From: Eledone cirrhosa
Lineage: Eukaryota
DNA length: 64,000 nucleotides
NCBI GenBank assembly: GCA_964016885.1
Contig: OZ024743.1
Coordinates: 295,554,001 to 295,618,000 of the forward strand
Direction of reading: 5' to 3'
The notes beneath the pieces are model-generated. The model was not told where the DNA came from, did not search any database, and saw nothing but the letters and a program-made list of their open reading frames with translations. Position numbers and translations under genes: made by a program. Below, in pieces: positions 13,143 to 47,057 of the stretch (position 1 is the first letter of the stretch; each line of letters begins with the position of its first letter).

Positions 13143-13895
13143 AATAATTGTTTCTGCATTTCGCACAAGCCCAACACTTTTGCGAGCATTGGAAAATTCG
13201 ATTAAATCGTCCCGATGCGTTACTGATGCTTCATTTTACTGAACCCATAAGGATGAAAGGCAAAGCTAACAACAGCGGGATTCCTGCTCAGTACGTAAAG
13301 GGATGTAAATATATGCCGTAAGCATGTTGTTTGACGCTATATCTATTCTTCCAATCAACTACCAGATGGTTACTAATGATGATTTCTGATTTTGACACAA
13401 GGCCAGCAATTTTGTGGGAGGGGAAAATCGATTAAATTGTCCTCAATGTGATACTGGTACTTTATTCTACCGATCCCGTAAGGCTGAAAGGCAAAGTTAA
13501 CCTTGGTGGAATTTGAAATCGGAATGTAAAGTGACGTAACTATACGCCACAAAGTATGTTGTCTGACGTTCTACTGATAATGGCAATCCGACTTAATACT
13601 ACTTCAAGAGATATCTTCGTACTCAGAGCCCAATATATCGCCTACGCTAAAATAAAAATCCATAAATTATGAATCAGTTGTACATTGTAAACTCAACCCA
13701 TCATTTTTCAAATAATTGTTTCTACTTTAGGCACAAGGCCAGCAATTACCCAGTGCATTACTGGTACTTTATTTTATCGACCCCGTAAGGATGAAAGGCA
13801 AAGTCAACCTCGGCGGGATTTGAACTCAGATCGTAAAGGGACGTAACTATGCTGGAAAGCATGGCGTCCGACCATCTACCGATACTGCCAATCCA
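13143..13895 (-). mobile_element. Cluster of three ATT-tailed tRNA-like SINEs (13143-13363, 13374-13590, 13711-13895)
   Basis: Each carries a version of ctttgcctttcatccttacggggtcgataaaataaagtaccagt and the tail ggccttgtg..agaaa. The third is near-identical to the 41.3-41.7 kb copies. Confidence 0.85.
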
Positions 13896-14064: not shown

Positions 14065-14570
14065 TAACTCACAGTGTAGAACAACCTACATAAATACAAT
14101 ATATTTTATCCGTCGTCCTCCAATCTTTGATGCGAATGAAAGTAAGAAGTTTCGGGGAGATATTTGGAGTGTAGGAAAGGAGTACAATAAAATTGTGGAG
14201 TCGCTGACTAACATCAAAATTGACATTGGGCATAAACAACAGGGAGAATTGGAGATAACAACTGATATGGTAACTCTCCAGTGTATAAAGATACCATATT
14301 GAAAAGCTCCCAGCTGAGACGATGTGAAAGAATTCTGGTTGGAAAAGTTGAGGGCCTTTCATGTGAGAATTGCTGAGCAACTGAATAAGATATTGAATGG
14401 AGAAGAGAGGTTGCCAGAATGGCTAACCTTTCGGAAAACGATCTTGTGGTTGAAGGACCCCAACAATGGAAATGCAGTTGACAGGTTTAGACCTATCTCT
14501 TGCCTCCATCCTATGTGAAAACCTATGACAGATATCATTGCTGGGACAATGTATGAAAGTCCTCTAGAAC
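14065..14570 (+). mobile_element. R4/Dong-like RT fragment (a further lineage)
   Basis: ORF 14324-14518, FWLEKL...[17 protein letters not shown]...FRPISCL, aligns with the Dong RT N-terminal domains at 36.6-36.85 kb. Confidence 0.75.
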
Positions 14571-17193
14571 AGTCTGGTCAGTTCGACATCGTAAATGCCA
14601 AGGACCTCTCTGGGTGAGTTGTCGCACTTGCCCACCAATAATCCTCTCTAGAACTCGAGAGAGGAAGTTCCACTGACCACATTGCCCGCCTGGCAGAGAG
14701 GAGTGAGCGCCTGGCAAGGTTCCAGATGACATACGCCCAGTCTCGCTCTCTTCCTGACCCAGGAGTGCAGTTTAATGAGAGAGACGAGCTGTGGAAATGC
14801 CTATCACAAAGATGGCAACCAAAATTGTTAAGATTATTTAAAGTAGCGGTAGCCTCAGAGTATATTTGTGCATCACCGACCCAGCTGGCAGCAAACGGAC
14901 CGCCTCATCAATATAACCTGTGCCTTCCACAAGAAGTTGATGAGCAGGTCTTCCAACTTGATGAGGTTCAAACGGGGACAAGGTACAATGGTCAAGTGTT
15001 ACTAGATGTCGGATGAGATGTACGAGTTTGCCACATCCGCTCGACCTTTCAGAGATAGCTTTATCCCGGCGTATTTCTGGGTGAAACTGACCAGCCTGCT
15101 TGTTACTTCGTCGCAGTTCTTATCCACCTGGAGGTGTAATCCTAACTAGAACGCGAGCAACTTCACCGGTCCCTCCGACCAGCGTCTGACGACGCTGTTG
15201 AACGTCAACCTTTCATATTCCATTAAGAACGTACCGACCACCTTGTTCTCGGAGGTGTTCGACACCATCACGGTGATGTCATCCGCATACGCCATCTAGC
15301 TCTTATACGTCCCGATTCCAGCAAGAAGTCTTGCAACAGCTCTAGCTTTCACACTAAATGCTCGTGTATCAAAACGTAGAGAAGGGAGGAGAGACTGTAC
15401 CCTTGACAGACCAACTATGTCATCTGAAACGGTTCCGAAAGGTGGCCATTTATTTTGACTACTGAGCAGATGCCGTGGTGCATTGCAGGGATCAAGCCAA
15501 TTAATACGTGGCCAAAACCAGCTCTGCCTTGAGGACAGCCTCCAGGTATCGATGATCGACCCTATCGAAAGCTTTCGATTCATCTAAGTTCATCATAGCC
15601 ACACCGAAGGAATGTTTACTCCCTACACTCTCTCTGATGTACCGCATGAAATGGAGGTTGTCGTGCATGGATCTGGTCGCGATTTCCCAAGTCCGCACCT
15701 CCCTTACCAGCCCCTCGAAGATAAGTGTCAACCTCTTCGCTAACACCTTGGCCAAAATCTTAAACTCTGTGTTTAGCAGAGTTATGAGCGTAAAATTGTC
15801 TAAAATGTTCCTCTTATTCTCGTCTTTCTTCATCAGGGTTACTACGTACTGGCTTGCAGAACTAGGAATAGTCACATTCTACTGCAAGTTGCAGTAGACC
15901 TCGAGGAAATAGAAGGACAAGTCTAGCATACCTTCTTAAATCTCGTAGTGAAGACCATCGGAACCGAGTGATTTCAGCTTCGGCTGGCGTGAGTCCCGGG
16001 AAACTAATGAAGTAAGAACTGAAGTCTGCTACAGTCTCCGACTCAGCCTTCGCCGAAACAGTCAAGCAAAGTGCTGGCGAAAGGCCACAAACATCTACAT
16101 GGTATCGTTCCGCAAGCGTTCATCTCGGTTCGACGAATACTGTATCGTGGCTTTGTAACCACCCTGGATTCTGCCACTCGGACCCATCGAACAGCTTTGG
16201 TTTTGGGGGTTTCTTAGAGCACGTGCCTTAGCTTTGACAATACAACCGTCAAGTTTCGCATTGAAGAAATGGTATACTGCCATTCTCCCTGCTAACACGT
16301 CAGTTGCCATGCCACTTCTAATCACCTCATCCGCACCCCCTCCTTTCTATTTTATTTCTTTACTAAAACCTTTGACACCAGTGTAAACTTTTACTTGAGA
16401 GCACCCCACGACCTGTTGTTGAGAAAACCCCTGTCAAATTACACTTATGAAAGTAGGGTCCCGTGCTCCACATGATTTAGGCGCCGGGAATACGCTATAA
16501 GCTTCCAATACCCAGGTCGAAGCCTATATGTTTTATCTAGGTCGGCGTTTCAGATCACAAGTTTATGATTTGAATAGGTGACCGTTCGGATATGTGGACA
16601 ACATATACTATTCATATTTATTAACTTAACCAAAACCTATCTATGTACATCATATATGACCCTATATGGTTGTTCCACGTCCACACGGGCGCATTTGAAA
16701 AACCTAGTCGGTATCTGTCAGACAGTTGATGTTGCATTTTAGTGCTGCCTTCACGAAATTGGGACGGGGGCCAGTTCCACTTCACGGGTTTGTTGCCATT
16801 ATTGCCGTTGTTGCTCTCGTTTGATTTGATTTCGCTGTTGGTGTTGCTCCTGTTGTTGGCGATACTACCAAAAGTGGTGGTAATGTTGATACCAGTGATG
16901 GTGAGGGGGAGGGGGGGGGGCTCAAACAACTCAACGTCTGAACCGCTGTTACGTGACAGATGGCTTACGGTGATAGGGCATATTCTGTCCCTATTTTTTA
17001 GCGAAACATTATTTGTAAAACTAATTAACGTTCAAATATTTGGCACCAAAGTCCAAATATGGGATTGGCTTTTCGCAGGACAAGGAAGGGTCCTTATGAC
17101 CCCTTTACAACAAAATCTTAGAACAAAATACGAATTTGAACAACTTAATTCACCAAACCCATCAGAATCGCACGTCTTCACACTTTAGTCACC
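14571..17193 (-). mobile_element. L1/Tx1-clade LINE copy A, degenerate, internally deleted and 3'-broken
   Basis: ITLLNTEFKILAKVLAKRL, LDESKAFDRVDH and AYADD are present. The 5' end is GG directly after (ATT)n. The APE remnant is fused to the ORF1 N-terminus near 16780. Confidence 0.85.
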
Positions 17194-17220
17194 AATAATA
17201 ATAATAATAATAATAATAAT
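17194..17220 (+). repeat. (TAA)n spacer between Tx1 copies A and B
   Basis: Direct observation. Confidence 0.95.
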
Positions 17221-17494
17221 TTCATTTATTGGTCACAAGGGCCGACATATAGGGGACAATACAAAAGACTGGGACAGTGGGGTTTTACAGAAAAATCGAG
17301 TAAACAATATGAATAACAATAACAAAGTAACAATAACAAAGTAACAATAAAGTAACAATAAAGTTACAAGAAAAAAATTCCCCAATAGGTTGGATGACGA
17401 CCTAGGGTTCGCTCAGGTACCCCACCAGTCCTGAACGATCCGACGCTTCGAGAGCACCCTGGAAGGCACCCCTCTCCTCTTCAAATTTACCTAC

Positions 17495-20400
17495 CTAAAG
17501 CCGCATGACCAGAGCAGGCCCACTCACACGGGCCATTCTCGCCACATTCACCCACCTTTCAGCAAATGTACTGGGGGGCAGCACTTCTCTCTCCACCCTT
17601 ACCTTCCTTTCCAAGTGAAACTTGAAAAAGTTGATGAGGGATTGGCCGATGAGAAAAGTGTCTGTCTTCAGTCTTTCAAACTCGTCCACCATACAACCTC
17701 TGTCGCTACTGCCACCAGACAGAGGAAAATTGCCTGCTCTTCCTGGCCAAAAGAAGGCGGCGGGTCGATCTTCACTATGGACTCGGCCGATAGCCGGATC
17801 CGTTCTAAACGCGACTACAGCTGTTCAACATAACTCCACAAGTCAGTAATGCACGGACATTGGACGAGTGCGTGCAGAACGGTTTCGTCGCTCTGCGCGC
17901 ATCTCGGGCAGGTCCGTCTGACAGCACTTCCGTGCCTGTAGAGTTTTTCTCGAACCGGCAGTGCCCCCCGGTAGTACTGCCAAGCGAGGGATTTTGGGAA
18001 ATTATCAATCGTCCCCGGCTCGAAAGTCCTCCGGTACAGAGTGGTTAGTTCGACCTCGTTGACTCCCAGAGCCTCTCCGAGTGCGTCGTCGCACTTGCCC
18101 ACCAATAATCCTCTATAGAACACGAGAGTGGAAGTTCCACTAACCGCATTGCCCGCCTGGTAGAGGAAAGTGAGTGCCTGGCAACATTCCAGATGCCAGT
18201 CACCCAGTCTCGGTCTCTTCTTGACCCAGGACTGCAACTCAGTCAAAGAAACGAGCTGCGGAAAGGCCCGTCTGACAAACGGCGACCACACCTGTTCACT
18301 GTTTAGGCAGAATATCTGGAGATGCCTTAGCCTCGGCACGTGCCTGCGCATCATTAGCCACGGCATGCCCGGCCCTCCACGTAGAGGGTGCTGGCAGCAG
18401 ATGGACCGCCTCAGCAGCGGAACCTGACCCCTCCACAAGAATTTGAAGAGGAGCCACTCCAAGATGGCGAGGCGCGAACGGGGACAAGGGACGACAGTCA
18501 GACGGTAGTAGATGACGGACGCAATGTACGCGTTCGGCACCTCCGCCCGAGATTTCAGTGATAGCTTCATCCCAGCCCATTTCTGGGTGAGACTGACTAA
18601 CCTGCCCGTCACCTCGTCCCAATTCTTATCCACCTGGAGGTCTGGCCCGAACCAAACCCCTAGCAACTTTACCGGTCCGTCCGTCCAGCGCCTAACGACG
18701 CTGTTGGACGGCATGGACTTGCCTCTCCAGGTGCAGAGTTGCAAGCCCACTGACTTTTCCGGGTTAAGTTTTGCTCCCGTCAACCTTTCATATTCCTCCA
18801 ATAAGTTGCCGACCACCTCGATTTCTGAGGTGTCCGACACCATCACGGTGATGTCGTCCGCATAAGCCGACACAGCCTTTCCGCATCCCGGTTCGAGCGG
18901 GATGCCCTGCAACAGCTCCAGCTTTCGCAGTAAAGGCTCGAGAGTCAATACGTACAGAAGGGAGGAGAGAGGGCGCCCTTGACGGACCGATCAGGAGACC
19001 TGAAACGGTTCCGAGAGGTGGCCATTAATTTTGACCATCGAACAGGTGTCGTTGTGCATTACAACGATCCAGCTTCTGAAGACGGGGCCGAAGCCAGCCG
19101 CCTTGAGAACAGCCTCCACGTACCGATAGTCGACCCTATCGATTGATTTAAATTGATCAGAGCCAGGTTTATACCCTACCCTCTCTATGATGTATCGCAT
19201 TAGGTGGAGGTTGTCGTGTATGGACCTGGTTGGGATTGCGCAAGTTTGCGCCTCCCCAACCAAATCCCCGACGACAAGAGCCAACCTCTTCGCTAACATC
19301 CTGGCCAAAATCTTAAACTCTGTGTTGAGCAGAGTTATGTGCCTGAATTGTCTAATGTGTCCCTCTTGTTCTCGTCTTTCCTTATCAGCGTCACTACGCT
19401 CCGGCTCACAGAACTGGGAATACTCCCGTTTTGCTGCCAGTTGCAGTAGAGGGCTTCGAGGAGATTGGAGAACAAGTCTGGCATATTTACGTAAAGCTCG
19501 TAGGGCAGACCATCCAAACCGGGTGACTTGCGCCTCATGCAGCCGAAAGGGCATCCTGAGTCTCGGCTGAAGTAATTGGCCTTTCGCAGCGCCATGCGTC
19601 AGCCGGCGAGAGTTGCGGCAAGCCATCGAGGTAGGGACTAATGTCCGCCACCATCTCTGACCCGCCACTTCCCCCGAACAACCGAGCAAAATGTTGGCGA
19701 AATGCCTCACACATCCTCTTGGAATCGCTCAGCTCGTGCCCGTCTCGGTCCGTCAAAGACCGAATCGTGGTTTTATTACCACGCTGCGCCTCTGCCACGC
19801 GGGCCCATCGAACAGCTTTGGTTCCCTCGTTTCTCAGAGCACGCGCCTTAGCTCTGACAATGCAATCTTCGTGTTTCGCATTGAAGAAATGGTCTAATGC
19901 TATTCTCGCCGCTAGCACGTCAGTTGCAATGCCACAACCAATAGCCTCGTCTAACTTATCTACCAACTCCGGCTCCTTTCTATTTTTCTCTAACGCTACT
20001 TCTTTGCTAAACTCTATCAACATTACTCTAATCTCTCTTTTGAGAGCCCCCACCATCTATTGTTGACGACTCCCCCTGTCAACTTTTTCTTAACTAAATT
20101 GTTGACCTGGTTCCTGTAAGCCTTATGTCCCGGAAATGACATGTTTAGCTTCCAGTAACCAGGTCCTAACCTACGCATCTTATCTAGGTCGACCATACAG
20201 ATCACAAACTTGTGATCTGAATAAGCGACCGTTTGAAAACGTGGACAGCTTACACTATTTCTGTCTATTTTCCTAATGAATATCCTGTCTATATACGATC
20301 TAGATGACCATATGCAGTTAGCCCAGGTCCACACTGGCGCATTAGATAAATCTAGTCGGTACCTGTGAGACAGTTGGAACTGGCTGATCAGGTTCTTGAG

Positions 20401-20868
20401 GCTTTTGCACCCCCCGCTCCTATCGGATACTCCCACACAGTCTCAGCGTGCGTCTAAGATGCCGTTCCAGTCCCCCGCTAACAGTAAAGAGCGACACGTA
20501 CCCAGAAAGGCTTCCAGGCGTCTAAAGAAGTCCGACCGTCCTGCCATTCTAAAGGCACCACCTTCATTATTGTTCACGTCCAGGACCACCAACTTCCCGT
20601 CCGGGTCCCGGAAGATCGACCTTACCTCGAGATCCAGGCCTTTCCTAAACAGCACTGCCACCCCGCCTCCCATTCCCGGCCGGCTAACAGATGCAAAGAT
20701 CTGATAGTCGTCGGAAATGGGGGCTAGTGCGCGCGTGTCTGATCTCCTGGTCTCGCTGACTGCAATTACATCCATTTCTATAGACCTGAGGTCGTTGAGC
20801 AGGTGACCCTGCTTCCAGGACGATCCCACGCCTCGAACATTTAAACATCCTACTCTTAATACGGCCAT
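17495..20868 (-). pseudogene. Tx1-B ORF2 (APE endonuclease, RT, C-terminal zinc finger), frameshifted
   Basis: NVRG, VSET, GDWNG, YIDR, YSDH; KSPGLDG, AYADD; CPRCAQSDETVLHALVQC. Split over several ORFs. Confidence 0.92.
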
Positions 20869-20899
20869 GTTGGCAGGTTAAACAGAGAGAGATGAAGGT

Positions 20900-22806
20900 T
20901 TATTTACCTTCCGGGCTCTCGTGAAGGTCGGGTTGTTCGACCTCCATAGTTAGTGGGATTGCTTTTGGGAACCCCTTTAAAAGTCTTGAAGTGGGTTTTA
21001 CGTTCGGAGTTCCCACGTCCCGAGCAAAGCTGTCTCGTATTTCCTTGAAAATGTCAAGCGACATTCGCACCAGAACCAAATCTTCCGGCACGCGAAATGT
21101 GCTCGATTTAAAAATTTCCCCCTCTTTTTGTATTTTTTCACTTCAGTCCTTATTGGCCCTCCTGACGAGCACGAAGTTTTGTATGTTTTCTTGGTGTGAT
21201 TTTATTTGTCTGCGTGGCTGTGGTGGTGATGGTTTTGGTGGTGTTGTTTCGGTTGTATCTGTGTTTGTTGTGAGTGCGGTGATTGTCGTTTAAGATGTGT
21301 GTGTGTATATTTCTTCTTCGTCTGTTTCGGTTGTTTGCGTTTGGGGGATTCTGGTGATGGTGATGGTGGTGTTGATGTTGGTGTTATTGGAGTGATGTTT
21401 GCGTGGGTGGTGTCTGCATTTTTTATTGGGGGTGCTTTTGTGCTTTAAGTTTTTTTTTTCTTTTTGTGTTTCCTTTTTTGGATTTTGGGGGATTTTGGAT
21501 TTCCCTCATTTTCACTACTGGTAGAAGAGGGGTCTGTGTCTGTAAGTGTGTCTGTAAGTATGTTTATGGTTTTATTGGTGTGTGTAGTTCCTCGTTTCCC
21601 CCCTGGGTGGTCAATGTTGGTGGTGGTCTTTCTATTGGTGTTGTTTTTGGTGCTTTTGCTGGTGCTGGTGTTGATTGTGGTCCTTGCCCCGGCGTCGGCA
21701 GCAGTGGAGCCTTTCGACCCCTTGCCTCTTTCAGCAGTTGGGGGCAGAAGGCTCGCAAATGGGTTTTTTCCCCACAAACAAAACACTGCGGCCTTTTATC
21801 TTCGGACATAATGTGAATGACCGTCCCATTCTGAAGGCGGATGTGGTCCGGGACTGTCTTCACATACTCGGGCCTGCTCTGGAGAAGGATCTCCAGGTCA
21901 ACCCCGGACCAGTCCTCTCTGGCCGTTCTGGTCACTTCTATAGGGACGGTATCCGTCCCCTACACAATCACACATCCCAGAAGCCACCACATGTCAAGTC
22001 CTGGTAGAATTATCGGAATGCGATGACGGGCCGTTCTTTTTCCCATGTGGGTGGGTACATTATGACCTTGCTGGTTTTGCAAGGAGTCATAGCGTGTTTC
22101 ATAGCGAGGGCTTCTGACTTGAACAACACCGAAATGGTGCCCCTCTCTATTTACTGGGTGTCTTCCCTGATGCACCTCAGCGCGACTTCGACATCTTGTG
22201 GGATTAAAGCTGCCCTTTTGGTTTGTGCTGAGATGCATCTATAATGCACCGTTTTGCGCTCCACTGCCTCAATAGCTTCTACCGGGACAGTTAAGTTGGC
22301 CCAAGTTTGCTCTTGCCTGATGAGCTTCCATGCCTGGGCCAACTTTTCATCTTTGTTTGAGAGGTCCATGTTGAAGCATGGCCTCTTTTTTGCTGCTGCC
22401 GCAGCGAGAGTGTTCTTCTTGATTTCGTTGGGGGTTTTGCTGTCGTTGTTCTTGTTGGTATTGTTGTTAGCACTGTTATCATTGTTGTCTTTGTTGCCAC
22501 CGTTGTTCTCGGTGCAGTTGGTATTGTTGCTGTTGGTATTGTCGCTATTTGTTTTCATGTTAGTGGTATTGATATTGTTGTCGTATTTGTTATTTTTTTT
22601 ATTTTATCTGTATTTTCGTTGTCGCTGTTACTGTCATTTTTTTCAAAATTAGTGTTCTTATTGGTATCATTGGTGTCTTTGTTTACCTTGTTTGTGGTGG
22701 TGTTTGTGTTATCAATTTGTGTTAATTTCGCTGTAGCGCTCCTCTCCACTTCTACGACGTTGTCGCACGACAGCAGACATATCGCTGTGTGGCGTGGCTC
22801 AGCCAT
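20900..22806 (-). pseudogene. Tx1-B ORF1 (gag-like, CCHC zinc knuckle), frameshifted
   Basis: Asn/Thr-rich N-terminus, CFVCGEKTHLRAFC, Pro/Thr-rich region. Confidence 0.85.
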
Positions 22807-23010
22807 GTTTTTCTTCTTCGTAAATTTTTTAACATGTAAAATAAAGTTCAAATATTTGGGCCAAAAGGCCCAAATATTATACTTTCCCCTTCACTGGGCA
22901 AAGTCTAAGAGTTATATCCCTTACACAACAAGAAATATATTACAACAAATAATTTTAGCAGGCAAATAAAGCGACTTACTGTGAGCGAGCAAAATACGTC
23001 CGCTTAGACC

Positions 23011-23037
23011 AATAATAATAATAATAATAATAATAAT
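23011..23037 (+). repeat. (TAA)n spacer between Tx1 B and C1
   Basis: Direct observation. Confidence 0.95.
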
Positions 23038-23281
23038 GTTTTCTTTATTAACCACAAGGGTTTACATGAAGTAGACATTAAGGACGGTACAGGACAATAC
23101 AGGACGGTACAAATGGGCATTTCTGCGTGTAAATAAAACAGAGGATGTAATAAAATAACAAAGAAAAATTCCCCAATAGGGGGGAGACTTCTGAAAGACA
23201 TTTGTGGAGAAAACCCATTAAAAGACCACAGTGACCCTGACCACCAGGGCAAGTGCCCTCTCCCAGTTTTCCACCTTTAAT

Positions 23282-26200
23282 TTACAGACACATACTCAGA
23301 GAAGGCCCATTTATTCGGGCCATACTTGCTTCTCTCACCCATCTTTCAACAAAATGCTGGGAAGAGAGCACAACCCTCTCTACCTTGATTTTCCTTTTCA
23401 AATGAAATTTGAAAAAGTTAATCAGGGCATCACCGAAGAGGTAAGTGCTCGTCTTAGCCCTTTCAAGCGTGTCCACCATACTATCTCTTTTGCCATGGCC
23501 ACCAGACAGATAAAAACTGCCTTCCCTTCCCGGCTAAAGGAAGAGGGCGGGGCAATCCTCACGATGGACTCAGCTTATAGCTGGATCCGTCCTACACGTG
23601 ACAGCAGGTGTTCGACATAAACCCACAAGTCAGCAATGCTCGGACACTGGACGAGTGTGTGCAGGATGGTTTCGTCGCCCTGTGTGCATCTCGGACATGC
23701 CCGGCTGACGGAACCTCCATGCCTGTAGAGTTTATCCCGAACTGGCAAAGCTCCCCGGTAGCACTGCAGGGCCAGGGATTTCTGGAAGTTGTCCATAGGC
23801 CCCGTCCCGAAAGACCTTCCGAAGAGATTGGCTAGTTGATTTTCGTCGACGCCTAGAGTTTCTCCAAGTACGTCGTCGCTCTTCCCCTCCACTAATCCTC
23901 TATAGAACGCCAAGGTGGAGTTTCCACTGATCACATTGCCCGATTGGTCGAGGGCTGTGAGCGCCTGAAGACATTCCAGTCTCCAAGCACTCTCTCTCAG
24001 TCTTCGCTTGACCCAGGACTGCAGCACCGTCAAGGAGACGAGCTGGGGAAAGACGCGTCTAGCAAACGGCGACCACACCTGATCACCGTCGAGGAAGAGG
24101 TGGAGATGTCGTAGCCTGAGCGCGTGTCTGCGCATTATCAGCCACGGCATGCCCAGCCCTCCACGTAGCGGGTGTTGACAGCAGATGGACCGCCTGACCA
24201 TCGGAGCGCGTCCCTTCGACAAAAAGCGAAAGAGCAAACGCTCCAGCACAGTCAGGAGGGGCTTAGGACAAGGTACGACGGTCAGGCGGTAGTAGATGAC
24301 GGACGCGATGTACGCGTTAGCCACCTCCGCTCGACCTTTCAGGGATAGCTTCCTCTCGGCCCATTTCTGGGTGAGAGAAGCCACCCTGCTCGTCACCTCG
24401 TCCCAGTTTTTGTCCGTCTGGAGGTCTGGACCGAACCAGACCCCTAGCAATTTAACTGGTCCGTCCGTCCAGCGCCCGACGACGCTGTTGGACGGCATGG
24501 ACCTGCCTCTCCAGGTGCCGAGCTGCAGGCCCACTGACTTTTCCTGGTTGATCATTGCTCCTGTCACCGCTTCGTATTCTCTTAGTGTAGTGCCGATCGC
24601 CTCGATGTGTTTGGCGTTCGACACCACTACGGTCACATCGTCCGCATATGCTGACACGGATCTTCCGCATCCTAGATCCCGTAGGACCCCCCTCAACGTA
24701 TCCAGTTTGTGCAGTAATGGCTCGAGAGTCAATACGTACAATAGGGACGAGAGGGGACATCCTTGGCGGACCGAGCGCATGATGTTGAACGGTTCCGAAA
24801 AGTGACCGTTCACTCTCACTACAGAGCAGATGTGGCTGTGCATGGCAGCGATTCAGCCTCTGAAGACGGGCCCAAAGCCAGCCGCCCTCAGGACTGCCGC
24901 TAGGTAACGATGGTCGACCCTATCGAAGGCTTTTGACTGATCTAAATTGATCAAAGACCCACCCGTGCCAGGTTCCCTAGCTACCCTCTCTACGATGTAT
25001 CGCATGAGGTGGAGGTTGTCGTGGATGGATCTGTCGGGAATGGCGCATGTCTGCGCCTCTCCCACCAGACCACCAACGACAGGCGCCAACCTCTTTGCTA
25101 ACACCTTGGCGAAAATCTTGAACTCTGTGTTTAGCAGAGTTATGGGCTTAAAATTATCTATGTTATCCCCCTTGTTCGGATCCTTTCTCAGCAGCGCTAC
25201 CGCTCCTCGGCTCACAGAGCTGGGAATTCTCCCGTTCTGTTATCAGTTGCAGTAGACGTCCGCCAAGAGGCCTCCGAACAAGTCTGGCATTTGTACGTAA
25301 AGTTCATAGGGCAGACCCTCCAAACCAGGTGATTTACCCCTTGTGCAGCCAATCATTGCCTCCCGTACTTCAGCGGCTGTTATTGGCTTGTCGCAACACT
25401 CCGCCTCAATGGCGGAGAGCCGCGGCAGTTCGTCGAGATAGACACTAAAGTCCATCCCTCGATCCGGCCCACCACTGCCCCCAAACAGTTGAGCGAAGTG
25501 TCGCTGAAAAGCTTCACACATTTGCCCGGGATCGAGTAGCATGCGCCCGTCGTGGTCCACCAAAGACCGGATCGTGGCTTTGTTGCCACGACGCGCCTCC
25601 GCCACTCGGGCCCATTGAACGGCTTTCGTCCCCTCGTGTCTGAGAGCACGCACCCTAGCTCTGACAACGCAGCCTTCGTGCTTTGCGTTGAAGAATTGGT
25701 CAAGGGCCAATTTCGCTGCAAGTACGTCGCAAAGCGCCTCGTCTAATTTTCTAACTAATTCTCCCTCTGCTCTATTCTTCTCTATTGCTAAAGCCTTACT
25801 AAACCTAATGGACTCTATTCTAATTGCTCTTTTCAGAGCAAACCACCTCTTGTTGTTCATGAAGGCCTCCGTCAACGCCCGCTTAACTAGTTCGCTAATC
25901 CGGTCTCTGTAGCTCTTGCGCGCTGGTAAGGACGCGTTTAGCTTCCAGTAGCCGGGTCCTCGCCTATGCTAGACCTATCTATTTCCCTACAAAATACTCT
26001 ATCTAGATATGATCTGGATGACCCTATGCGATTTGTCCAAGTCCACATTGGCACATTCGGGAAATCCAATCGGTACCTGTCAGACAGTTCAAAACGCCGA
26101 ACAGGTTGGTGAGGCTTTTGCACCCTCCCCCCTATCCGCTGATCCCACACAGTCCCAGCGTGCATGTAAGATCCCGTTCCAGTCGCCCACTAACACTAAA

Positions 26201-26608
26201 GAGCGGGACGTTCCAAGAAAGGTCTCCAGACGCCGGAAGAAATCAGGCCGCCCTGCTCCTGTCGGGGCATAGACGGCCACTAGCGTGAAAGCTTTCCCGT
26301 CTCTGCTGGTCACGTCTAGCACCACCAACTTACCTTCTGGGTCCAGTAACATGGCCCGTATGGCGAGATCCAAACCTCTCCGAAAAAGCCCAGCAAATCC
26401 CCCCCCCCCCCGATCCCAGACGGCTGGGAGATGCGTACACATCGTAGCCGCCGAAGATCGGTGCGAAGGCCCGTGCTTCGGAGATTCTGGCCTCGCTGAT
26501 GACCACTACATCTATGTTTAGTGACCTGAGGTCGTTGAGCAGGTGGCCCTGCTTCCATGACGACCCCAAGCCACGCGCATTTATGTTGCCTATTCTGAGT
26601 GAGGTCAT
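23282..26608 (-). pseudogene. Tx1-C1 ORF2 (APE-RT-zinc finger), frameshifted
   Basis: NARGL, VYAP, GDWNG, LDQSKAFDRVDH, VRQGCPLS, AYADD, CPRCTQGDETILH. Confidence 0.92.
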
Positions 26609-26647
26609 GTTGAAATGGAGTGGAAAAGATGGGAAAGACCACTTACC

Positions 26648-28548
26648 TTACTTCTCGTTGAGGAAGGATGGTTTCTCCATCCTTTTCACTGCTTGTGGCC
26701 TCCTCCGGAAGGATGTCCTTATAAATCCTCCTGGAGAGTTTTTGTCGGAAGTCTCCGATGTCTTTGGGGAATTTTTGTTTTAGTGTCGTGTACGTTTTCT
26801 GTGTGATGCGAGTGATTTGTATGTGTGGAGGTGGTGTGAACTTTTGAGTTGTTGTGTAGTCTTTTTCTGTGATGCTTGTGTTGTGTTGGGTGTAGTGTAA
26901 TAATTTAATGCTGTGTAGTGTGTATCGTTTTGGTTGTTTTGTTTTGTTTGCGTTTGTTGTGGGTTTGTTTCTGTTTCGCTTTTTGGTGACTTTTGTGGTG
27001 TTGGTGATGGTGGTGTTTGGGTTAATGATGGTGATGGTATTGGTGTTTGTGGTGATGGGGTTGGTGATGCTGGTGTGGATGGTGGCATATTTGTCCTAAC
27101 TTTTTTGTTTGATAGTTTATTTGTTTCCCTCTGTATTTTGTTTTTGGAGGGGGAAGGAAGAGAATTATTTCATTTTTGGTTTCTTTTTTTCTTTTTTCCT
27201 GATACCGTTTCCCACTCCTCGTCGTCACAATCTGTCTCCAGTTGTGATAGCCTGAGGAGTGGAAAATCCTCCACAGGCGTTGGTTTTGTTTGTGGAGTAG
27301 TGGATGATGTAGGCGCTGGTGCTAGTTCTGGCGCGTTGGGTGGTGGTATTGGTTTTGCTACTGTTGCTGGGGTTGTTGCTGTTACAGTTGCCTCTGTTGT
27401 TGCAGCTACAGTTGTTGCCGCCATCTCTGCTGCTGGTGGTGTTGATGGTTGAGGCACTAGGGTGGGTAAGAGAGGTGGCCTCAACCTTTTAGCCTGAGGG
27501 CAGAAAGCCCTTAGGTGGGTTACTTCACCACAAACGTCACACCTAGGCCTTCTGCCCTCGACGATTACGGTGAGGTGGCTGCCGTCAGTGAGGTCTATTA
27601 CCTCTGGGATCTCCTCAATGCTTTATTGGTCCGCTTGGATCAGGAGCTCCACCCCTCATCCGGGCCAGTTCACCTGCTTTTCTTTCGCTATTTCGATTAT
27701 CTTGGTGTTGGCTTCGATGCCGGCGAGGACAGCAGCTATTAGCCAGGGAATTTCGATGGCCGGTGGAACGTGGATCACCCTGATCTTTACGAGTCTCTGG
27801 CCACAATAGCTTGGGACGAGTGTGAAGTCGTCACTTCTTAATGGGGCCATGGAGTGTTCTCTAGCCTCCTGTGGTGTTTCAAAGAACACGTCCACGTCTG
27901 ATGTGGGGGGTTTTTGGCCCACACATGTCCCAAAGCTTTTTGGATTTGGGACTCGGTGCCCGTTCCACTCGGCGCGATTTTATATTAATTGTTCGATAAG
28001 ACACGGTGCATAGGCGCCGATGGTCCATTTTCTTAGGTGGGGGGTGAAGCTGACCCTGTACCCATCTCTCTTTACCATTTTTGGGGCTTCTTCTAATTCC
28101 TCCCGAGTTACCTGAAATGCTTCGCACTGTTTTGCTACTCTGGCAAGACTCAGGGTGGTTTTCTTAATGTCATTGTTGCTGTTGTTGTTATCGTTATTTT
28201 TGTTATTATTAATTTTAGTTTCAGTTGTGGTGGTGGCGTCAGTGGGGTTCGGTGTGGAAGTGTTCATTTTGGTTGAATTCATTTCGATATCACGAGTTAA
28301 TTTATTTTTTTCTTTTGTTTGTGGTGTCGGGGTGTGGTGGGGTTGGTGGTTGTCGCGGTGGTGGTGGTGGTGGCGGCTTTAACACCTGCTGTGATTGGTA
28401 ATGGCGGGAAATGAATGTCTGCCTGAGACAAATTTAAAATATTGCTACTGCTTATATTTTTAGTGTTGGCAAACGTAGTAATATTTACAATAGTGGTGTC
28501 GGTGTGAGGTGTTAGTTTGTGAGGAAGGAGTGACCCTGAGTCGTCCAT
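26648..28548 (-). pseudogene. Tx1-C1 ORF1, frameshifted
   Basis: Fragments match ORF1 at 48440 (PHKLTPHTDTT, VPSYCGQ, DDEEWETVSGKKK). Confidence 0.88.
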
Positions 28549-28756
28549 GATTTTTCAAAGAAAAATTTTTGTTTGATAATTATAAAAGTATAAATTTTGG
28601 GCTCAAGGCCCCAATCTTTTTAGGTGTCCTTTTCAGATAACAATGTATGTGCACTTATATATAGTTAACAATAAAAAAATTCCCATGAATGGCAATTTTA
28701 AACAACTGAAAATAAAAAAACTTTGCGGAGCTCACGATTTACTACCGTAGGTCGCC

Positions 28757-28786
<30 letters not shown>
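28757..28786 (+). repeat. (TAA)n spacer between Tx1 C1 and D
   Basis: Direct observation. Confidence 0.95.
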
Positions 28787-28788
<2 letters not shown>

Positions 28789-31700
28789 TTTCTTTATTGG
28801 CCACAAGGGCTGACATCAAGAAAAACATTACAGACGGCACAGGACGGTACAGGACGGTACGATGTGGGTTTTGTGCGTGTAAATATTTTTATTATTTACA
28901 TAAGAAAAGAGAAAAAAAGGACATAGAAACATATATATATATAAACAATAAAAATGAAAATTGAAACAATGAAAAATTCCCCAATAGGGGGGAAACCTCC
29001 GAGGTTTACACGTGGCGAAAATCACACAAAAGACCACGGCCACCCTGACCACCAGGGCAAGCGCCCTCTCTCAATTTTTCCATCTCTCAAACTACAGACG
29101 TATATAGAGTGGTCCCGTTCACTCGGACCATTCTCGCTACATGCACACACCTTTCAACAAACTTGCTAGAAAGCAGCACTTGCCTCTCCACCCTGATTTT
29201 CCTCTTCAAATGAAACTTGAAAAGGTTAATTAGGGATTCGCCGAAGAGGAAAGTGTCTGTCTTTAACCCTTTAAACCTTGTCCACCACACAATCTCTTTC
29301 GCCATGGCCACCAGGCAGATGAAAACCGCCTGCCCTTCCTACTCGAAGGAAGACGGCGAGACCATCTGCACAATGGACTCAGTGACAACCGGATCAGTCC
29401 AACACACGACAGCAACTGTTCGACATAGCTCCACAAGTCAGCAATGCTCGGGCACTGAACGAGTGCGTGCACGACGGTTTCGTCGCTCTGCGCGCATCTC
29501 GGAATGGCTCGGCTGACGGCACTTCCGTGCCTGTAGAGCTTATCTCGAACCGGCAGCGCTCCCCGGTAGCACTGCCAGGCCTGGGATTTTGGGAAGTTAT
29601 ACATAGGCCTCGGGCTGAAAGTTCTCCGGCAGAGAGCAAACAGCTGATCTTCTTCGACGCCCAGGATCTCTCCGAGAATGTCGTCGCTATTCCCCTCCAC
29701 TAGTCCTCTATAGAACGCCGAGGTGGATGTTCCACCGATACTGGTGCCCAGCTGGCAGAGGGCAGTGTGTGCCTGGAGACATTCAAGTTTCCAAGCGCTA
29801 TCCCTCGGTCTTTTTCTGACCCAAACTGCAAATCCGTCAAGGAGACGAGCTGTGGGAAAACGTGCCTGGCGAACGGCGACCACACCTGCTCACCATCTAG
29901 GAAGCACCAGAGATGTCGCAGCCTCAGCGCATGTTTGTGCATCATCAGCCATGGCATGCCCAGTCCTCCACGGAACGGATGTTGACAGCAGATGGATCGT
30001 CTGACCATGGGAGCGCGTCCCTTCCACAAAAAGCGGAAGAGGAGGCGCTCCATTTTAGAGAGAGTTGGGCTGGAGCAAGGGACGACGGTGAGGCAGTAGC
30101 AGATGACAGATGCGATGTACGCATTCGCCATCTCAGCCAGGCCTTTCAGGGACAGCTTCTTCTCAGCCCATTTCTCGGTGAACGAGGCCACCCTGCTCGT
30201 CACGTGGTTCAAGTTTTTCTCCATCTGGAGGTCCGGTTCGAACCAGACCCCGAGCAATTTAACCGGTCCGTCCGTCCAACGCCCCACGACGCTGTCGGAC
30301 GACATGGACTTGCCTCTCCAGGTGCCGAGCTGCAAGCCCACCGACTTTTCCTTGTTTATCTTTGCTCCTGTCACCGCTTCCTATTCCTTGAGAGCAGTGC
30401 CGAGCATCTGGACGTGTCTGGTGCTTTACACCACCATGGTGATGTCGTCAGCGTAAGCCGACTCGGATTTCCCGCATCCTAGTTTGCGCCTCATCGCCCC
30501 CAGTTTGTCCAGTAACGGCTCGAGAGCCAATACGTACAAGAGGGACGAGAGGGAACAACCCTGGCGGACTGAGCGCATGATGCTGAACGGCTGCGACAGG
30601 TGACCTATCACCCTCACAACTGAGTAGATGTCGCTGTACATTGCTGCGATCCAACCCCTGAAAACGGGCCCGAAACCGGCTGCCTCGAGGACCACCGCCA
30701 GGTACCGATGGTCGACCCTATCGAATGCTTTGAATTGATCAAAGTTGATCAGCGCCCCACCCTTGCCAGGTTCCTTAATCACCCTCTCTATGATGTATCG
30801 CATGAGGTGGAGGTTGTCGTGTATGGATCTGTCCGCAATTACGCATGTCTGTGCCCCATCCACCAGACCCTTGACGACAAGCGCAAAACTCGTTGCTAAC
30901 ACCTTGGCCAGAATCTTGAACTCTGCGTTTAGTAGGGTTATGGGCCTGAGATTATCGATAACAACCCCCTTGTTCGGGTCTTTTCTCAGCAGCGCCACTG
31001 CTCCCCGGCTCACAAAACTGTAGGAATGCTCCCGTTCTGCTGCCAGTTGCAGTAGACGTCTGCCAAAGGTCAGCGAACAAGTCTGACATAAATGCATAAA
31101 GCTCGTAGGGCAGACCATCCAAACCTGGGGATTTACCCCTTATGCAGTTAGCCATCGCTTCCCGTATTTCACCGGCTGTTATTGGCTTTTCGCAACACTC
31201 TGCTGCGGTTGTCGGGAGCCGAGGCAGTCCGTCGAGGTATGCACTGAGGTCCATGCCCCGATCCGGGCCGCCGCCGCTCCCGAACAGTTCAGCAAAGTGC
31301 TGCTGAAAAGCTTCACACATCCTCTCGGGTTCGAGCACCACGCACCCGTTTTGGGTCAGACAAAGACCGAATTGTGGCTTTGTTGCCACGTCGCGCTCTG
31401 CCACCCGGGCCCATTGGACGGCTTTTGTCCCCTTGTGTTTCAGAGCATGCGTTCTAGCTCTGACAACGCAGCCTTCTTGTTTTGCGTTGAAGAATTGGTC
31501 GAGTGCCAATCTCGCCGCAAGCACGTCGGTTGCGATGCCTGTCCTAAACGCCTCTTCTAGCTTTCTGACTAGCTCTCCCTCTACTCTATTTTCCTCTATC
31601 ACTACTCCTTTACTAAACCTAATCGACTCTACTTTAATTGCCCTTTTCAGGGCGAACCACCACCTGTTGTCGACGATCGCTCCCATCAACGCCCGCTTAA

Positions 31701-34061
31701 CTAATACACTAATCCGGTCTCTGTAGGCTTTGCGCGCCGGGAAAGACGCGTTCAGCTTCCAGTAACCAGGCCCTTGTCTATGAAGTCTAGCTATGTCGAT
31801 CTCACAGATCACAAATTTGTGGTCTGTGTAGTCGACTATTTTAAATTGTGGACAACTTACACTAGTTCTCTGCAGAATACCCTATCGAGATACGATCTGG
31901 ATGACCCGATGCGGTTTGTCCATGTCCACATTGGCACATTCGGGTGATCTAGTCGATACCTGTCAGACAATTCAAAACGTCTCAGCAGGTTGGTGAGGCT
32001 CTTGCACCCTTCTCCCCTATCCACTAGCCCCACACGATCCCAGCGTGCATCCAATATACCGTTCCAGTTGCCCACTAACACTAAAGAGCGGGACGTTCCA
32101 AGAAAGGTCTCTAGACTTCTGAAGAAATCTGGCTGTCCTGCCCCTGTTGGGGTGTAGACGGCTACTAGCCTGAAAGAATTGCCTTCGCTGCCGGTCACGT
32201 CCAGCACCACCGACTTACCTTCTGATTCTAGGAAGATGGCCCGTATCGCGAGATCCAAGCCTCTCCGTAAAAGGACGGCGACCCCTTCCCCCGATCCTGG
32301 ACGGCTGGGAGATGCGTATACATCGTAGCAGCCGAAGATCGGTGCGAAGGCTTGTGCTTCGGAGATTCTGGTTTCACTGATGGCCACCACATCTATGTTT
32401 AGTGACCTGAGGTCGTTGAGCAGGTGACTCTGCTTCCAAGATGACCCCAGGCCACGTGTATTTATACTGCCTATTCTGAGTACGGCCATGTTGGATGAGA
32501 AACGGGGCAAGTGAGAAAGGGTCACTTACCTTATTCGTGTGGTGAAGGGACATTACAACCGTCCTTTTCGATGGTCATGAGTGTTTCCAAGAGGATGTCA
32601 GTGTATATCCTCTTGGTAACCGACCCTCTGAAGTCTCCAACTGCGTTGGGGAATTTTTGTTTTAAAGGTTTGTACTGTTCTATTGAGATTTCAATGATGC
32701 TTATGTTTGTCGGGAGAGTTCTTGGTGTTGGTAGGGTGTAGTAGTTTTTTTCTATGATGTCTGTGTGCTGCTTTATATATTGTATGAGTTCTTTTTTTGA
32801 CATGTTTATGGCTGTGTACTTTTGGGGTGGAGGGGTGATTTTGTTGCTGTTTTCTTCTTGTTGCTGTTTGGTGTGTGTGTGTATTGTTGTGTTTGCGTTG
32901 TTGGTGTCTTTGGTGATGCTGGTGGTGGTGTGGTTGTTGTTGTCAGTGGTGCTTGTGGTGGTGATGGTGGTGGTGTTGCTGCAAGTTTCCTTGCTGCCTT
33001 TACCCCTCTTTGTATGCTTTCGCTTTTGGAGGGTGAATCTAAGGGTTTTTCTCTTTTGTCCTTTTTGTGTTAGACCATTTGCCACTTACTCCCGCTTCAA
33101 TCCATGTCGGATTCTGTGGCGTCTGGGAGGGGTATGTGCTCCACGTCTGTTGGTGGTGGTAGTAGAGCCCTCTTCGGCAATTTTGTTGCTGGTGTAGCTA
33201 CTTCAAATGTAGCTATTAGTATTGCCGCCACTGATGATGCTGCTTTAGTTGTCAGAGGCCTTGGTAGGGTGCTACGGACGTTGCCCTCCTACTCACCGTG
33301 GAAGGGGCTTCTTTGTTTGTTACCTGCCCTGCTCTTGGTAGCAGCGGACCAGGTATTGGAAGGAGAGGGGCTTCTTCGCTGTCTTCTGCGGGCAAAAGGC
33401 CCTGAGGTGACCCTTCGACCCACAGAGATAACATTTTGGCCGTCTTCTTTCTACACTTATAGGGAGTTGGAGTCCTTCCTCGATGTCTATGATATCGGGG
33501 ATAGCGTCGATACATTCCTGGTCAGTTTGTATAAGCATTTGCATGCCTATACCTGACCAGTTCTCTCTCCCCATTTTTTCTACTTGCAGCATGGTCGTCC
33601 TGTTCTCAATTCCAGCAAGGACAGACGCGGCCAGCCAAGGTATGGGAACGTCGGGTGGGACCTGGGTCACTTTAACCCTTACAATTTTCTGCCCGCAGTA
33701 GGAGGGCACCAAGACTATCTCCTCACTCTTTAGGGTTTCCAAAGAGTGAGACTTTGGGTCCTGGGGGGTGGCGAAAAGTACGTCTACTGTGGCGTACTTT
33801 CTGCCTCGGGTGATGTGGGTTTTGCGTGCCCAGACGCACCCCAAGGCCTTTTGGATTTGAGCATCCGTGGCTCTCTCCACTCAATGTGAGATTTTGCTTA
33901 CGGTGCGGTAAGTCACCGTCCGTAGCTGCTGGTCCTTGATAAAATCGGGTGGCGGTTTCAGGGAAACTCTATTTGCGCTTCTTGTCACCATGGCCCTTGC
34001 GACTGCCATCTCCTCCTCTGTGACTAACACTGTCTCGATATTTCGGGCGACACCTGCAAAA

Positions 34062-34062
<1 letters not shown>
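28787..34062 (-). mobile_element. L1/Tx1-clade LINE copy D, 5'-truncated within ORF1
   Basis: Starts at the SFAGVA motif of ORF1, directly after (ATT)n. Contains CYLCGSKGHLRAFC and the full ORF2 motif set. Ends ccaataaagaaatc-(ATT)n. Confidence 0.93.
29087..32489 (-). pseudogene. Tx1-D ORF2 (APE-RT-zinc finger), frameshifted
   Basis: INTRGL, ISET, YLDR, KSPGLDG, FDRVDH, VRQG, AYADD. Confidence 0.9.

Positions 34063-34103
<41 letters not shown>
34063..34103 (+). repeat. (TAA)n between the 5' ends of Tx1-D and Dong-A1 (head-to-head)
   Basis: Direct observation. Confidence 0.95.
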
Positions 34104-37100
34104 GGGAAGAAGAAGCACGAGGTGGTAGAAGGTCATGAAATCGCTCCCGTAAGTTTTGAATTTTTAACATATTTAAATCATTTGTGGAATAACCACTCTT
34201 AATACAAATGCTACGTAAAGCATCCGGCTTGAGCCCAAAAAAAATTCGGACCCAAAATATATTGTTATAAGGCTCAAATATTCAAATATTCAACTTTGTA
34301 TTGTACATTGTATATTCAAAAAAGAAAATGGCTATAAATGGAAGAAGACCCCCCCCCCTCTGTCTACACTATATAGAACAGCCAAACAACACCAATCTCA
34401 CCAACACCAGAGACTAGATACACCACCTACCCCATCACCTCTCTGTGTACACTAATCACAACAGCCAGATAACGGCAATTTCACCACCACCACAACCAAT
34501 CTTAACATAATAAGGATAATAATAAATACTATTATTATTGTCCCAAGTCTTAACAAACTGTTTAATCCCAACATTAAGGGAATTTAGGTCAACACACATA
34601 TACGCGACTAACCCCATAGATTCGCCGAACGGACATCAGTCCTTCATTGCTACCACCGCTACAACAACACCATCACTGCTGCCATCATTACTACCACTAT
34701 CCCACCATCACCGCCGCCACCACTCCTTCATTGCTACCACCGCTACAACACCATCACTACAGTAATACGATCACATCACCACCACCACTGCCTCGGTATC
34801 GACATCACCACCACCTCGGTCTCAGTATCGCTACCGCCGCTACTGTCTCTTATTGCTTCTGCTAGTTGCTTCCACCAAATTATAGAATTCCTACTAAAAA
34901 AGAGGAAGGCATCAAAATATATAGATAGACTCAAAAGAAAAGACAAACATCAAAACCAAAACAGCACAGCAACAACAGCAAAAAAACGAGAAAAACAAAC
35001 AGAGAAAAACAAAAACAAAAAACAAAAAAAAACGTAAAGAAAATAAGAATGAAGAGAGAAACAAGCGGACGGACAGAGAAGAGAAGGGAAAAACTAAGTC
35101 AGACATTCGAACACTACATTACAATGAAACATATGCTTATTCATTTTTGGGTTTTTTTATGCCTGTGTGTTTGTTTGCTTATTTGTGTTCGTCTACAGCG
35201 TGGTGATAATGCCACACAAGTGCCAATGGAACGGCGCAACCACCGGAGACGGTGAATCCACAGATGGCTATGTAACCATACATTCGCCAATCCTCGATAA
35301 GAGTGTTTAAATATCGAACCTAACCAGTTCGAATAACGGTGAAATGGAGACTAGAACGTCATGTGACAGACTCTCACCCAGCAGGTGCTCCCTAGCTCAG
35401 CAGCAGGAACCTGACTGTCAACCAAATACTGCTGGTGTTGGAGGAAGAAAGAGAAGGAAAGGGGCCAGAACCAACTGGACGAAAGAATTGAATAGAACTG
35501 TTATGCAATGTTACCTGAAAAGTAACCGCAAGGTAAGGGGCTATAGGAGACGGATGCATAACATCTGGAACGAGATTGGTCTATTTAAATTAGATGAACA
35601 AAAATTGGCCGGGCAGGCTCGGGTAATAAGAACTAATGGGTGGATAAGCGAGCTGGAACTGGAGGAACAGAGCAGAGAGAATAGCTTGGAGATGGAGGGT
35701 GTAGTATGCCAGACAAACGAGCCAGTGGGAAATGAAGGTGAAGAGGTCAAGAGAACGGAGGAACCACCCGAAGCAGACAATGATCTGAATACTGAGATAA
35801 ATAATACCTGGAACAGAGATACGGCCACTGAGGAGATGAATGTTGACGGGCTAGGACAAGATTCGGTTGACATCCTAAATTTAGTGGTAGATGAATTGAA
35901 CAATGATAGTAGGAGACCTATGAACCTAAGATTTGTAGACAGGAAAAAGTTAAAAGAAACAACAGCTAAGGTAAACAAAGTCATCCCATACCTTGAGGCG
36001 AGGAGCCTTCACCAGTGCAACAATATCCTCAAAGCAACAGCAAATACGGTGAGGAAACTACTTGGTATAAAAGCGAGAGGAAACAACAAACAAGAAAGAT
36101 CAGAGCTCTGGTGGAAGAAACGACTGAGTGGTCAAATCAGGGAAATGAGAAATGACATTGGAAAGCTTGAGTCCCTACTGAATGGGACACTAAAAAACAT
36201 AGACACTAAAAATAGACTGGAAAAAGGAGGAAAAAACTAAATATTATTATATAAAAAAACTAGGAGGAAAAAGCTAAATATTATCATAGAGGAACTGAAG
36301 CAACGCATTGTAGCAAAGAGTCCAAAAATCAGGCGATACGAAAACAGAGTCAGTCAGTATAGACAGAACCGCATGTTTGACAACAACCAGAAGATGCTGT
36401 TTGGACAGCTTGAAGGGAAAGAAAGAGCCAACGACTTGATCCCGGAGGCGGAACAAACTAAGACATTCTGGAGAGGAATATGGGAGCAGGATGTTAAACA
36501 TAATGACCAGGCAGTGTGGATTGAGACAGTACAGAAGGAGATTATTGAACAGGCACACCAACAAACTGATTTGAGTATCACAGTTGAAACTCTTAAGGGG
36601 CAGGCCAAAAAACTAACCAACTGGAAATCACCAGGCCCAGATGGTGTACAGGGGTATTGGATTAAAAATATAACATCCCTCCACCCGAAACTGACAACCA
36701 TGTTCAATGACTGCTTGATGTCAGGTGAGGTACCAGAGTGGTTGAAAAAAGGTACCACAGTTCCGATAATGAAAGACCGAATCAAGGGTAATTATGTTAC
36801 CAACTATAGACCTATCACATGTCTGTCCGTAATGTGGAAACTGTTGACAAGCATTATGTCTCAGGAAATCTACCATCACCTCCACACAAACAACTTGTTA
36901 CCGGACGAACAGAAAGGATGCCGAAAGAAGTCACGTGGTACAAAGGACCAGTTACTTATTGATAAGATGGTAATGAGGAATTGCAAGAGGGGGCACACTG
37001 GTCTTGCCATGGGATGGATAGACTACAAAAAGGCATTTGACATGGTGCCTCATTCTTGGATCACCAAAAGCCTGGAGCTCTTGAAGGTGGCAGATAACAT

Positions 37101-39051: not shown

Positions 39052-39052
<1 letters not shown>
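34104..39052 (+). mobile_element. R4/Dong-clade RLE retrotransposon copy A1, full length, disrupted
   Basis: About 1.24 kb 5'UTR and a single ORF with RT, CCHC and PD-(D/E)xK nuclease. Flanked by (TAA)n on both sides. The 5' end gggaagaaga matches the second copy. Confidence 0.93.
35344..38978 (+). pseudogene. Dong-A1 polyprotein (RT, CCHC, restriction-like endonuclease), frameshifted
   Basis: [72 protein letters not shown]...IVDVACP, EKINRYQDL. Confidence 0.93.
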
Positions 39053-39086
<34 letters not shown>

Positions 39087-39104
39087 GTAACAATAATAAT
39101 AATA
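39053..39104 (+). repeat. (TAA)n downstream of Dong-A1
   Basis: Direct observation. Confidence 0.95.

Positions 39105-47054: not shown

Positions 47055-47057
<3 letters not shown>

Follow-up and report, generated by a model that had tools for sequence, protein, structure and literature searches.

Stacked L1/Tx1-type LINE families that appear to target ATT microsatellites in the octopod Eledone cirrhosa

Results

We analyzed a stretch of 64,000 nt of the Eledone cirrhosa genome (contig OZ024743.1, positions 295,554,001 to 295,618,000 of the forward strand; hereafter the window), which holds five copies, A to E, of long interspersed nuclear elements (LINEs) that adjoin runs of the trinucleotide ATT (AAT on the other strand), and we ran genome-wide searches over the 3.0-Gb genome of the same organism. 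Copies A to D lie head-to-tail with 27-30 bp of repeat between them (Table 1), and because their pairwise DNA identity over the aligned pieces is 63-80%, they represent four lineages. The initial annotation had described four diverged copies in a row with short TAA spacers, which holds except that A is not a whole copy: ~465 bp of its 5' sequence is joined to open reading frame (ORF) 2 at B position 2635, and on the 3' side it breaks off near 14555 without an ATT tail. Copy E, which belongs to one family with C, was rightly noted as a fifth copy with ATT on both sides. The 5' starts of A, B, C, and E read ATT/GG (the slash marks the junction of repeat and element), and the truncated end of D (ATT/CTTTTG) directly adjoins its ATT run. 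The start rule proposed before, TTATT/GG, is better given as ATT/G, since sister families start with ATT/GA. The runs between two 5' ends had been taken as target DNA; their position is as described, but the partner elements are Dong/R4-like reverse transcriptase (RT) elements with AAT ends, and a 5' run need not be all target. Reading frames are interrupted in every window copy. Pfam domains were found in E (Exo_endo_phos, RVT_1, zf-RVT), B and C (RVT_1, zf-RVT), and D (Exo_endo_phos).

Table 1. Repeat runs and elements of the window, in window coordinates
Feature	Position	Strand	Description
SINE copy (further)	13711-13895	-
Copy A	14555-17193	-	oldest lineage; 5' end ATT/GG; internal deletion; 3' end missing, without tail
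(AAT)9 spacer	17194-17220		27 bp; separates the 3' end of B from the 5' end of A
Copy B	17221-23010	-	full length, 5790 bp; ORFs broken
(AAT)9 spacer	23011-23037		27 bp; between C and B
Copy C	23038-28756	-	full length, 5719 bp; in one family with E (88-95%)
(AAT)10 spacer	28757-28786		30 bp; between D and C
Copy D	28787-34062	-	5276 bp; 5'-truncated within ORF1; ~80% to C/E in ORF2
(AAT)13-14 run	34063-34103		39-41 bp (41 by TRF); between 5' ends of D and F
F, Dong/R4-like LINE	34102-39052	+	RT; flanked by AAT at both ends; orientation to the repeat reversed
AAT run	39053-39105		after F
SINE, three tandem copies	41311-41940	+	short ATT spacers
Second Dong-like family	47057-48185	-	short 3' pieces, ATT runs between
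Imperfect (ATT)17 run	48180-48230		before E
Copy E	48231-54124	+	full length, 5894 bp; ORF1 and ORF2 (APE-RT-zinc finger) both interrupted
(ATT)10 run	54125-54154		after E; common to the tail of the next element (G)
G, two joined Dong-like pieces	54155-61603	-	F-like copy 61603-56743, then second family to 54155
(ATT)20 run	61604-61663		adjoins G

Some of these families have young intact copies elsewhere in the genome. In copy L074 of the E family both ORFs are open (698 and 1152 aa from stop to stop), Exo_endo_phos, RVT_1, and zf-RVT are present with all catalytic residues of the apurinic endonuclease-like (APE) domain, and the best PDB match is L1 ORF2p (E 7e-52). Family J, whose ORF2 is 75% identical to that of E, has no stops in any of its 40 listed copies. 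The combination of an ORF1 with an ORF2 that carries an N-terminal APE, RT, and a C-terminal zinc finger but no RNase H is that of the L1 group (L1/Tx1), while the N-terminal APE sets A to E apart from Dong (R4 clade). By sequence, the copies appear Tx1-like and likely belong to the named Tx1 clade. The target-reading bB6-bB5 hairpin loop of the endonuclease, identical between families that are 75% alike in ORF2, has nine residues as in L1, unlike the 11 residues of Tx1L (PMC1950540), and is thus two residues shorter than in the Tx1L graft 2v0r and in fish proteins labelled YTX2; this trait does not define the clade. An Argonauta hians protein (73%, RT) is the one close homologue that bears a name. 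In an RT tree of 72 rows built by a quick tree search, among which Kibi, Koshi, Tx1L, and canonical L1 are not represented, the window lineages and Argonauta form one octopod clade (SH-aLRT 100) that is sister to proteins from ENA assemblies (99) and lies outside the clade with the YTX2-labelled fish proteins (99), to which RT identity is 36-38%; the joining node is weakly placed. A metagenome scan yielded just distant relatives (23-40% in the best segment), which were added as tree rows.

Some further observations concern the relatives of these elements. The nearest non-octopod ones (39-53% identity) are the ENA assembly proteins P0002-P0087, some in clusters of hundreds. Sixteen other organisms share 9-51% of the sampled words with positions 47900-54400; matches from two of them run along the length of E, so other species do have close relatives. 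In a comparison that skipped repeats, three contig sets of other samples and one restriction-site-associated DNA (RAD) set cover E. In family H (L301, L317, L326, L327, L330), the 5' half and ORF1 are D-like but ORF2 is E-like, which reads as 5' swapping between lineages. A further element start after ATT runs, at L256 and L269, matches no family studied.

For the quantification of the flanks, we counted element ends in the genome by exact patterns and took 20 evenly spaced 10-kb stretches of the same genome as background. A perfect (ATT)4 precedes 2098 of the 2308 E-type 5' ends, and (ATT)3 precedes 267/281 exact 5' ends of family B, 2416/2505 of H, and 319/325 of J. Full-length 5' ends in four families thus follow (ATT)3-4 in 91-98% of cases, where the background has 1-2 such positions per 10,000 ((ATT)3, 2.0e-4; (ATT)4, 1.3e-4), so that ATT at the 5' ends is not due to chance; one repeat type in more than 20% of flanks has served as the criterion for target specificity (PMC4494074). 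The enrichment at the flanks bears out the initial annotation, which had held that unique 5' flanks in most copies would speak against ATT targeting. Runs of the A lineage are shorter and decayed (30 loci), and solitary copies are likewise flanked by ATT. With queries that did not contain the repeat, all 30 retrieved E 5'-end loci read ATT/GG, and at the 3' end the sequence continues into ATT in all 30 E loci; there are 9314 E-type 3' ends in the genome. The E-family 5' junction has the single phase ATT/G in 2298/2308 ends, and the ten that lack the T before GG all still close an ATT tract. Only 18 E ends have just two perfect units; 17 of these tracts are longer but imperfect and one is truly of two units, and among the six of these copies with a 3' end in range none has the variant unit duplicated. 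The E 5' end after (TCTA)4 gave no match in this genome, and neither did a 76-base query of another 3' variant, in a search that skips common words.

Such flanks could also arise passively, if insertion were unspecific and copies survived only in gene-poor, repeat-rich places, and the window is indeed repeat-dense. However, ATT is already at 98% in near-identical young copies, the phase is exact to the base, and the elements do not use AT and AC repeats, which by far outnumber ATT in the background (395 and 63 vs. 11 runs), making passive accumulation scarcely credible.

Truncated copies, which carry no leader, give a separate view of the target. We fetched 40 copies at 7 kb, 39 of them picked by their 3' end, and found 27 to be full-length, three to have another family's 5' half, and ten to be truncated; a second sample took, in order of position, the first 40 3' ends to which no E 5' end could be matched, and gave two full-length copies, 17 with another 5' half, and 21 truncated loci that represent 19 events. 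When the 5' junctions of these 19 events were inspected by eye, five had at least four ATT units and seven a short ATT-like run or a duplication that starts with ATTA; TTC, the repeat of Koshi, stood at the 5' side in just two, and full-length copies have ATT rather than the (TC)n or (TTC)n of Kibi and Koshi. Of 15 young truncated copies, ten show at their 5' junction either ATT or a duplication that starts with ATTA. The target duplications of truncated copies and of a short interspersed nuclear element (SINE, described below) are ~4-37 bp long and start either at ATTA or within an ATT-like run. For example, L069 has ~37 bp of duplicated imperfect target with five extra ATT units between the element and the duplication, the duplication of L086 extends 8 bp into the neighbouring element, that of L094 (8-11 bp) holds just two units, that of L333 (16 bp) extends into GTT, and L328/329 is inserted at a single ATTA. 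The duplicated imperfect repeats imply that ATT was in the target before insertion and that the RNA adds tail units, and the ATTA-started duplications in truncated copies and SINE imply that ATT is the target and not merely a tail. Truncated L316, L069, L323, L325, and L320 adjoin ACT/AGT, TTC, or reversed AAT repeats, which may mean that pure ATT is too strict a description of the target.

These junctions also bear on the possibility that there is no target preference at all, the ATT tail and an ATT leader both being parts of the element that expand after insertion. The longer 5' runs of full-length compared with truncated copies and the RNA-derived tail units in L069 would fit such runs. Nevertheless, 10/15 leaderless young truncated copies have ATT or an ATTA-started duplication against 1.5% of background positions with (ATT)2 within 25 bp, imperfect units are duplicated on both sides, and the neighbours are very often other ATT-ended elements, so we regard this explanation as very improbable.

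The SINE shares with the LINEs an ATT end and a 3' hairpin with the loop CTTGT, whose stem changes are two-sided; in the LINEs the 3' end has the order hairpin, AATAAA, ATT run. In a test of the hairpin, 82% of the cells were paired and six cells carried a two-sided change, a level that none of 500 shuffles reached. In an automatic search of 30 genomic SINE copies (L201-L230), 22 have duplications of 7-21 bp, mostly outside long repeats, and 20 of these 22 start with ATTA or a one-letter variant. The SINE, which is abundant, is likely moved by these LINEs, and if so, the core motif of the enzyme would be ATTA and the microsatellite its multimer. The duplications of the SINE and of the truncated copies make the core cut motif look like ATTA rather than the long repeat. 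A second hairpin lies ~140-150 bp into the 5' untranslated region and is conserved in all families (window positions 48231-48400, and 22870-23010 and 17040-17193 on the minus strand); in E, its loop matches the loop of the 3' hairpin.

Full-length and truncated copies differ in their 5' runs. All 74 sampled E-type 5' ends, which are the best matches plus neighbours with 28 exception loci left out and are biased to young copies, have at least six perfect units, whereas at least five units were tallied by hand in only 6 of the 15 young truncated copies (Fisher p 8e-9; 1e-4 without the five copies that lack ATT). In two full-length copies (L262; L451/L478), 8 and 15 units stand before the 5' end but just two follow the 3' end, which does not fit a fixed stagger of 15-20 bp. 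R2 forms uniform 5' junctions when its RNA carries upstream target (28S) sequence (PMC3774820). The contrast in run length, the single phase, the two-unit 3' sides, and this precedent together suggest that the full-length RNA begins inside the repeat, which we consider rather more probable than not. Part of the 5' repeat of full-length copies would then probably be RNA-borne and anneal to the target as in R2.

We also considered a stricter role of the enzyme, in which the endonuclease needs an ATT run and cuts both strands at T/A, the RNA has no 5' repeat, and the SINE and stray truncated copies are either products of a less strict relative or the outcome of later changes. The one phase ATT/G in 2298/2308 copies agrees with it, several truncated junctions are compatible with a T/A cut given 1-3 nt of microhomology, and five of the ten exceptions read ATG/GG, as an extra cap-derived G, a known behaviour of L1, would give, although a point mutation fits too. 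On the other hand, the second cuts of L086, L094, L333, and L328, which belong to the same young family, lie outside ATT, their targets have one to three units, and some full-length copies have just two units at the 3' side; we therefore think targeting by the enzyme alone unlikely.

Several points weigh against an RNA that begins in the repeat and pairs with an ATT target. The exceptions show a slight excess of ATG/GG. No full-length copy, inspected by eye, had a unique duplication ahead of its 5' ATT run, a trace that repeats carried on the RNA could have left. The spacing to a motif like the downstream promoter element (DPE), with the start site in the repeat, is inconsistent, as by eye it fits three families but not the A lineage. 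An Rfam scan of the window found no ribozyme, just sub-threshold matches of microRNA and snoRNA type on simple repeats, and the folded 5' ends had no clear pattern like that of the hepatitis delta virus (HDV) ribozyme. Transcript start and end are read from the DNA alone, the targeting is read from filled sites and not from empty alleles, and the hairpin test has seven rows and four pairs with a structure chosen from the same sequences. Of the 19 truncation events, four have neither repeat nor duplication and three another repeat (TTC twice, reversed AAT once), and 5 of the 15 young truncated copies have no ATT; those without ATT may be later rearrangements. Finally, none of six 'truncated' B-type ends (30 loci) has an ATT run and one has an AT-rich duplication, most other short B-type ends looking like internal deletions or being interrupted.

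Turning to the arrays, the window neighbours are just 63-80% alike, so the array was built by separate insertions. Tandem duplication, unequal crossing-over, or assembly error could build arrays as well: L095/L096 have both a 5' variant and a broken frame in common, and a spacing of 5.8 kb separates ten J copies at C1:423.37-423.42 Mb. For the array of the window this is refuted by the divergence, and as solitary copies are also ATT-flanked, we give this explanation very little credence in general, while some same-family arrays may be duplications. The ten J copies themselves, head-to-tail with ~5.84 kb spacing (G000:C1:423367689-423420172), fit repeated insertion, duplication, and assembly error alike.

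The commonest neighbours of 444 distinct runs of at least four units are the ends of these LINEs, the SINE end, and Dong-like tails, in a tally over fetched loci that is biased because the loci were picked for these elements. In the window, F and the 5'-truncated piece at 47601-48185, which adjoins the run before E, are RT elements whose C-terminus reads by eye, in translation, like a restriction-like endonuclease, which we take the motif in F and G to be. Their RT is ~25% identical to that of the A-E group, and at both ends their own sense strand reads AAT, which is what Dong/R4 elements would show; F and G are flanked by AAT, and no named Dong sequence was part of the comparison. By sequence, F and G appear to represent two Dong/R4-like families in the same runs, in opposite orientation. 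The pieces of G join near 56743 without a repeat, and F has a 222-bp internal tandem duplication at 38262-38706, in its C-terminal region.

Discussion

We think it likely that related L1/Tx1-type LINE families lie almost only behind ATT, and are stacked there, because their endonuclease nicks ATTA sites and the AUU of their RNA pairs with the target. In the mechanism we propose, ORF2p would bind the 3' hairpin of the RNA, and the AAT strand would be nicked at the TAAT step, so that overlapping sites would be numerous in an ATT array. With its AUU end the RNA would then pair with the nicked strand and prime reverse transcription, by which 0-5 or more ATT units would be added. A full-length RNA would start a few units upstream, inside the repeat, and the end of its cDNA would anneal to ATT of the top strand, giving the single junction phase, while truncated cDNAs would join through the 1-3 nt of microhomology seen at truncated junctions, at a staggered cut that can fall outside ATT. 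Each insertion would leave ATT on both sides as a landing pad for sister families, the SINE, and the Dong-like elements, which could account for the mixed arrays.

According to one account, it is poorly understood how such elements locate microsatellites (PMC3812793). Known Tx1 targets are (TC)n for Kibi, (TTC)n for Koshi, and (TTCC)n/(TTTC)n for crocodilian families (PMC4494074, PMC3812793). The present elements resemble them as APE-type LINEs of the Tx1/L1 group with the microsatellite on both sides, far above the 20% criterion, and differ in the (ATT)n target with its ATTA core, the invertebrate host, the thousands of copies, and the several coexisting families; the RT forms its own octopod clade, in a tree without Kibi or Koshi rows. 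Outside Tx1, ACAY and AC are targets of Waldo/Mino and TAA is that of Dong (PMC3812793, PMC4640811, PMC13295347, PMC8967140, PMC11203168, PMC8869645), the TAA-specific elements being Dong, DongAg, and DongBg (PMC3812793). Dong-R4 occurs in cephalopods (PMC13282606, PMC10294476), and both L1-Tx1 and Dong-R4 are counted as recently active in Octopus vulgaris, in a text without target analysis (PMC13282606). Dong has the same microsatellite, and the Dong-like F and G share its runs in the window; unlike Dong with its C-terminal restriction-like endonuclease, A to E have an N-terminal APE, an RT of only ~25% identity, and the opposite orientation.

The endonuclease of A to E has the fold family and catalytic residues of the Xenopus Tx1L and human L1 enzymes (PMC1950540). 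With R2, the elements would share the uniform 5' junctions explained by annealing of the cDNA to the target; unlike A to E, R2 is of the restriction-like endonuclease type, specific to ribosomal DNA, and processed by a ribozyme. SINE-LINE pairs with shared tails are known (PMC4824008, PMC3747384). The SINE and LINEs of Eledone, paired here from sequence, resemble the stringent kind in a shared 3' hairpin with a conserved loop and a repeat tail, but differ in that the LINE partner is of the L1/Tx1 type. In eel and zebrafish, L2 forms such stringent pairs through a shared 3' stem-loop. The literature searched, as far as its texts go, contains no ATT-specific Tx1/L1 or APE element; Repbase, Dfam, and Kojima and Fujiwara 2004 lay outside the search, and figure labels or supplements of PMC4494074 may list one. 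We thus describe a strong target preference of a known type whose target is apparently unreported.

The finding extends the short list of APE retrotransposons that are specific to microsatellites by a target, ATT, and by a lineage from an invertebrate; in place of a few fossils, it offers young copies in the thousands, many with an open ORF2 frame. Full-length copies, truncated copies, and the SINE are three natural read-outs that separate the enzyme from RNA pairing, and the intact copies make an assay feasible. Tentatively, and with somewhat less than even confidence, we suggest that an undescribed octopod L1/Tx1-type lineage evolved ATT targeting independently, that its transcription begins within the upstream repeat and stops in the downstream one, so that the microsatellite at both RNA ends serves as promoter context, primer-binding site, and 5' joining arm, and that the lineage, with the SINE and with Dong elements in the opposite orientation, seeds itself and thereby makes and shapes a large share of the ATT microsatellites of this 3-Gb genome. 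Targeting shared among these elements keeps insertions out of coding sequence, matters for cephalopod microsatellite markers and for assembly, and could contribute to the transposable-element hotspots of Octopus vulgaris (PMC13282606).

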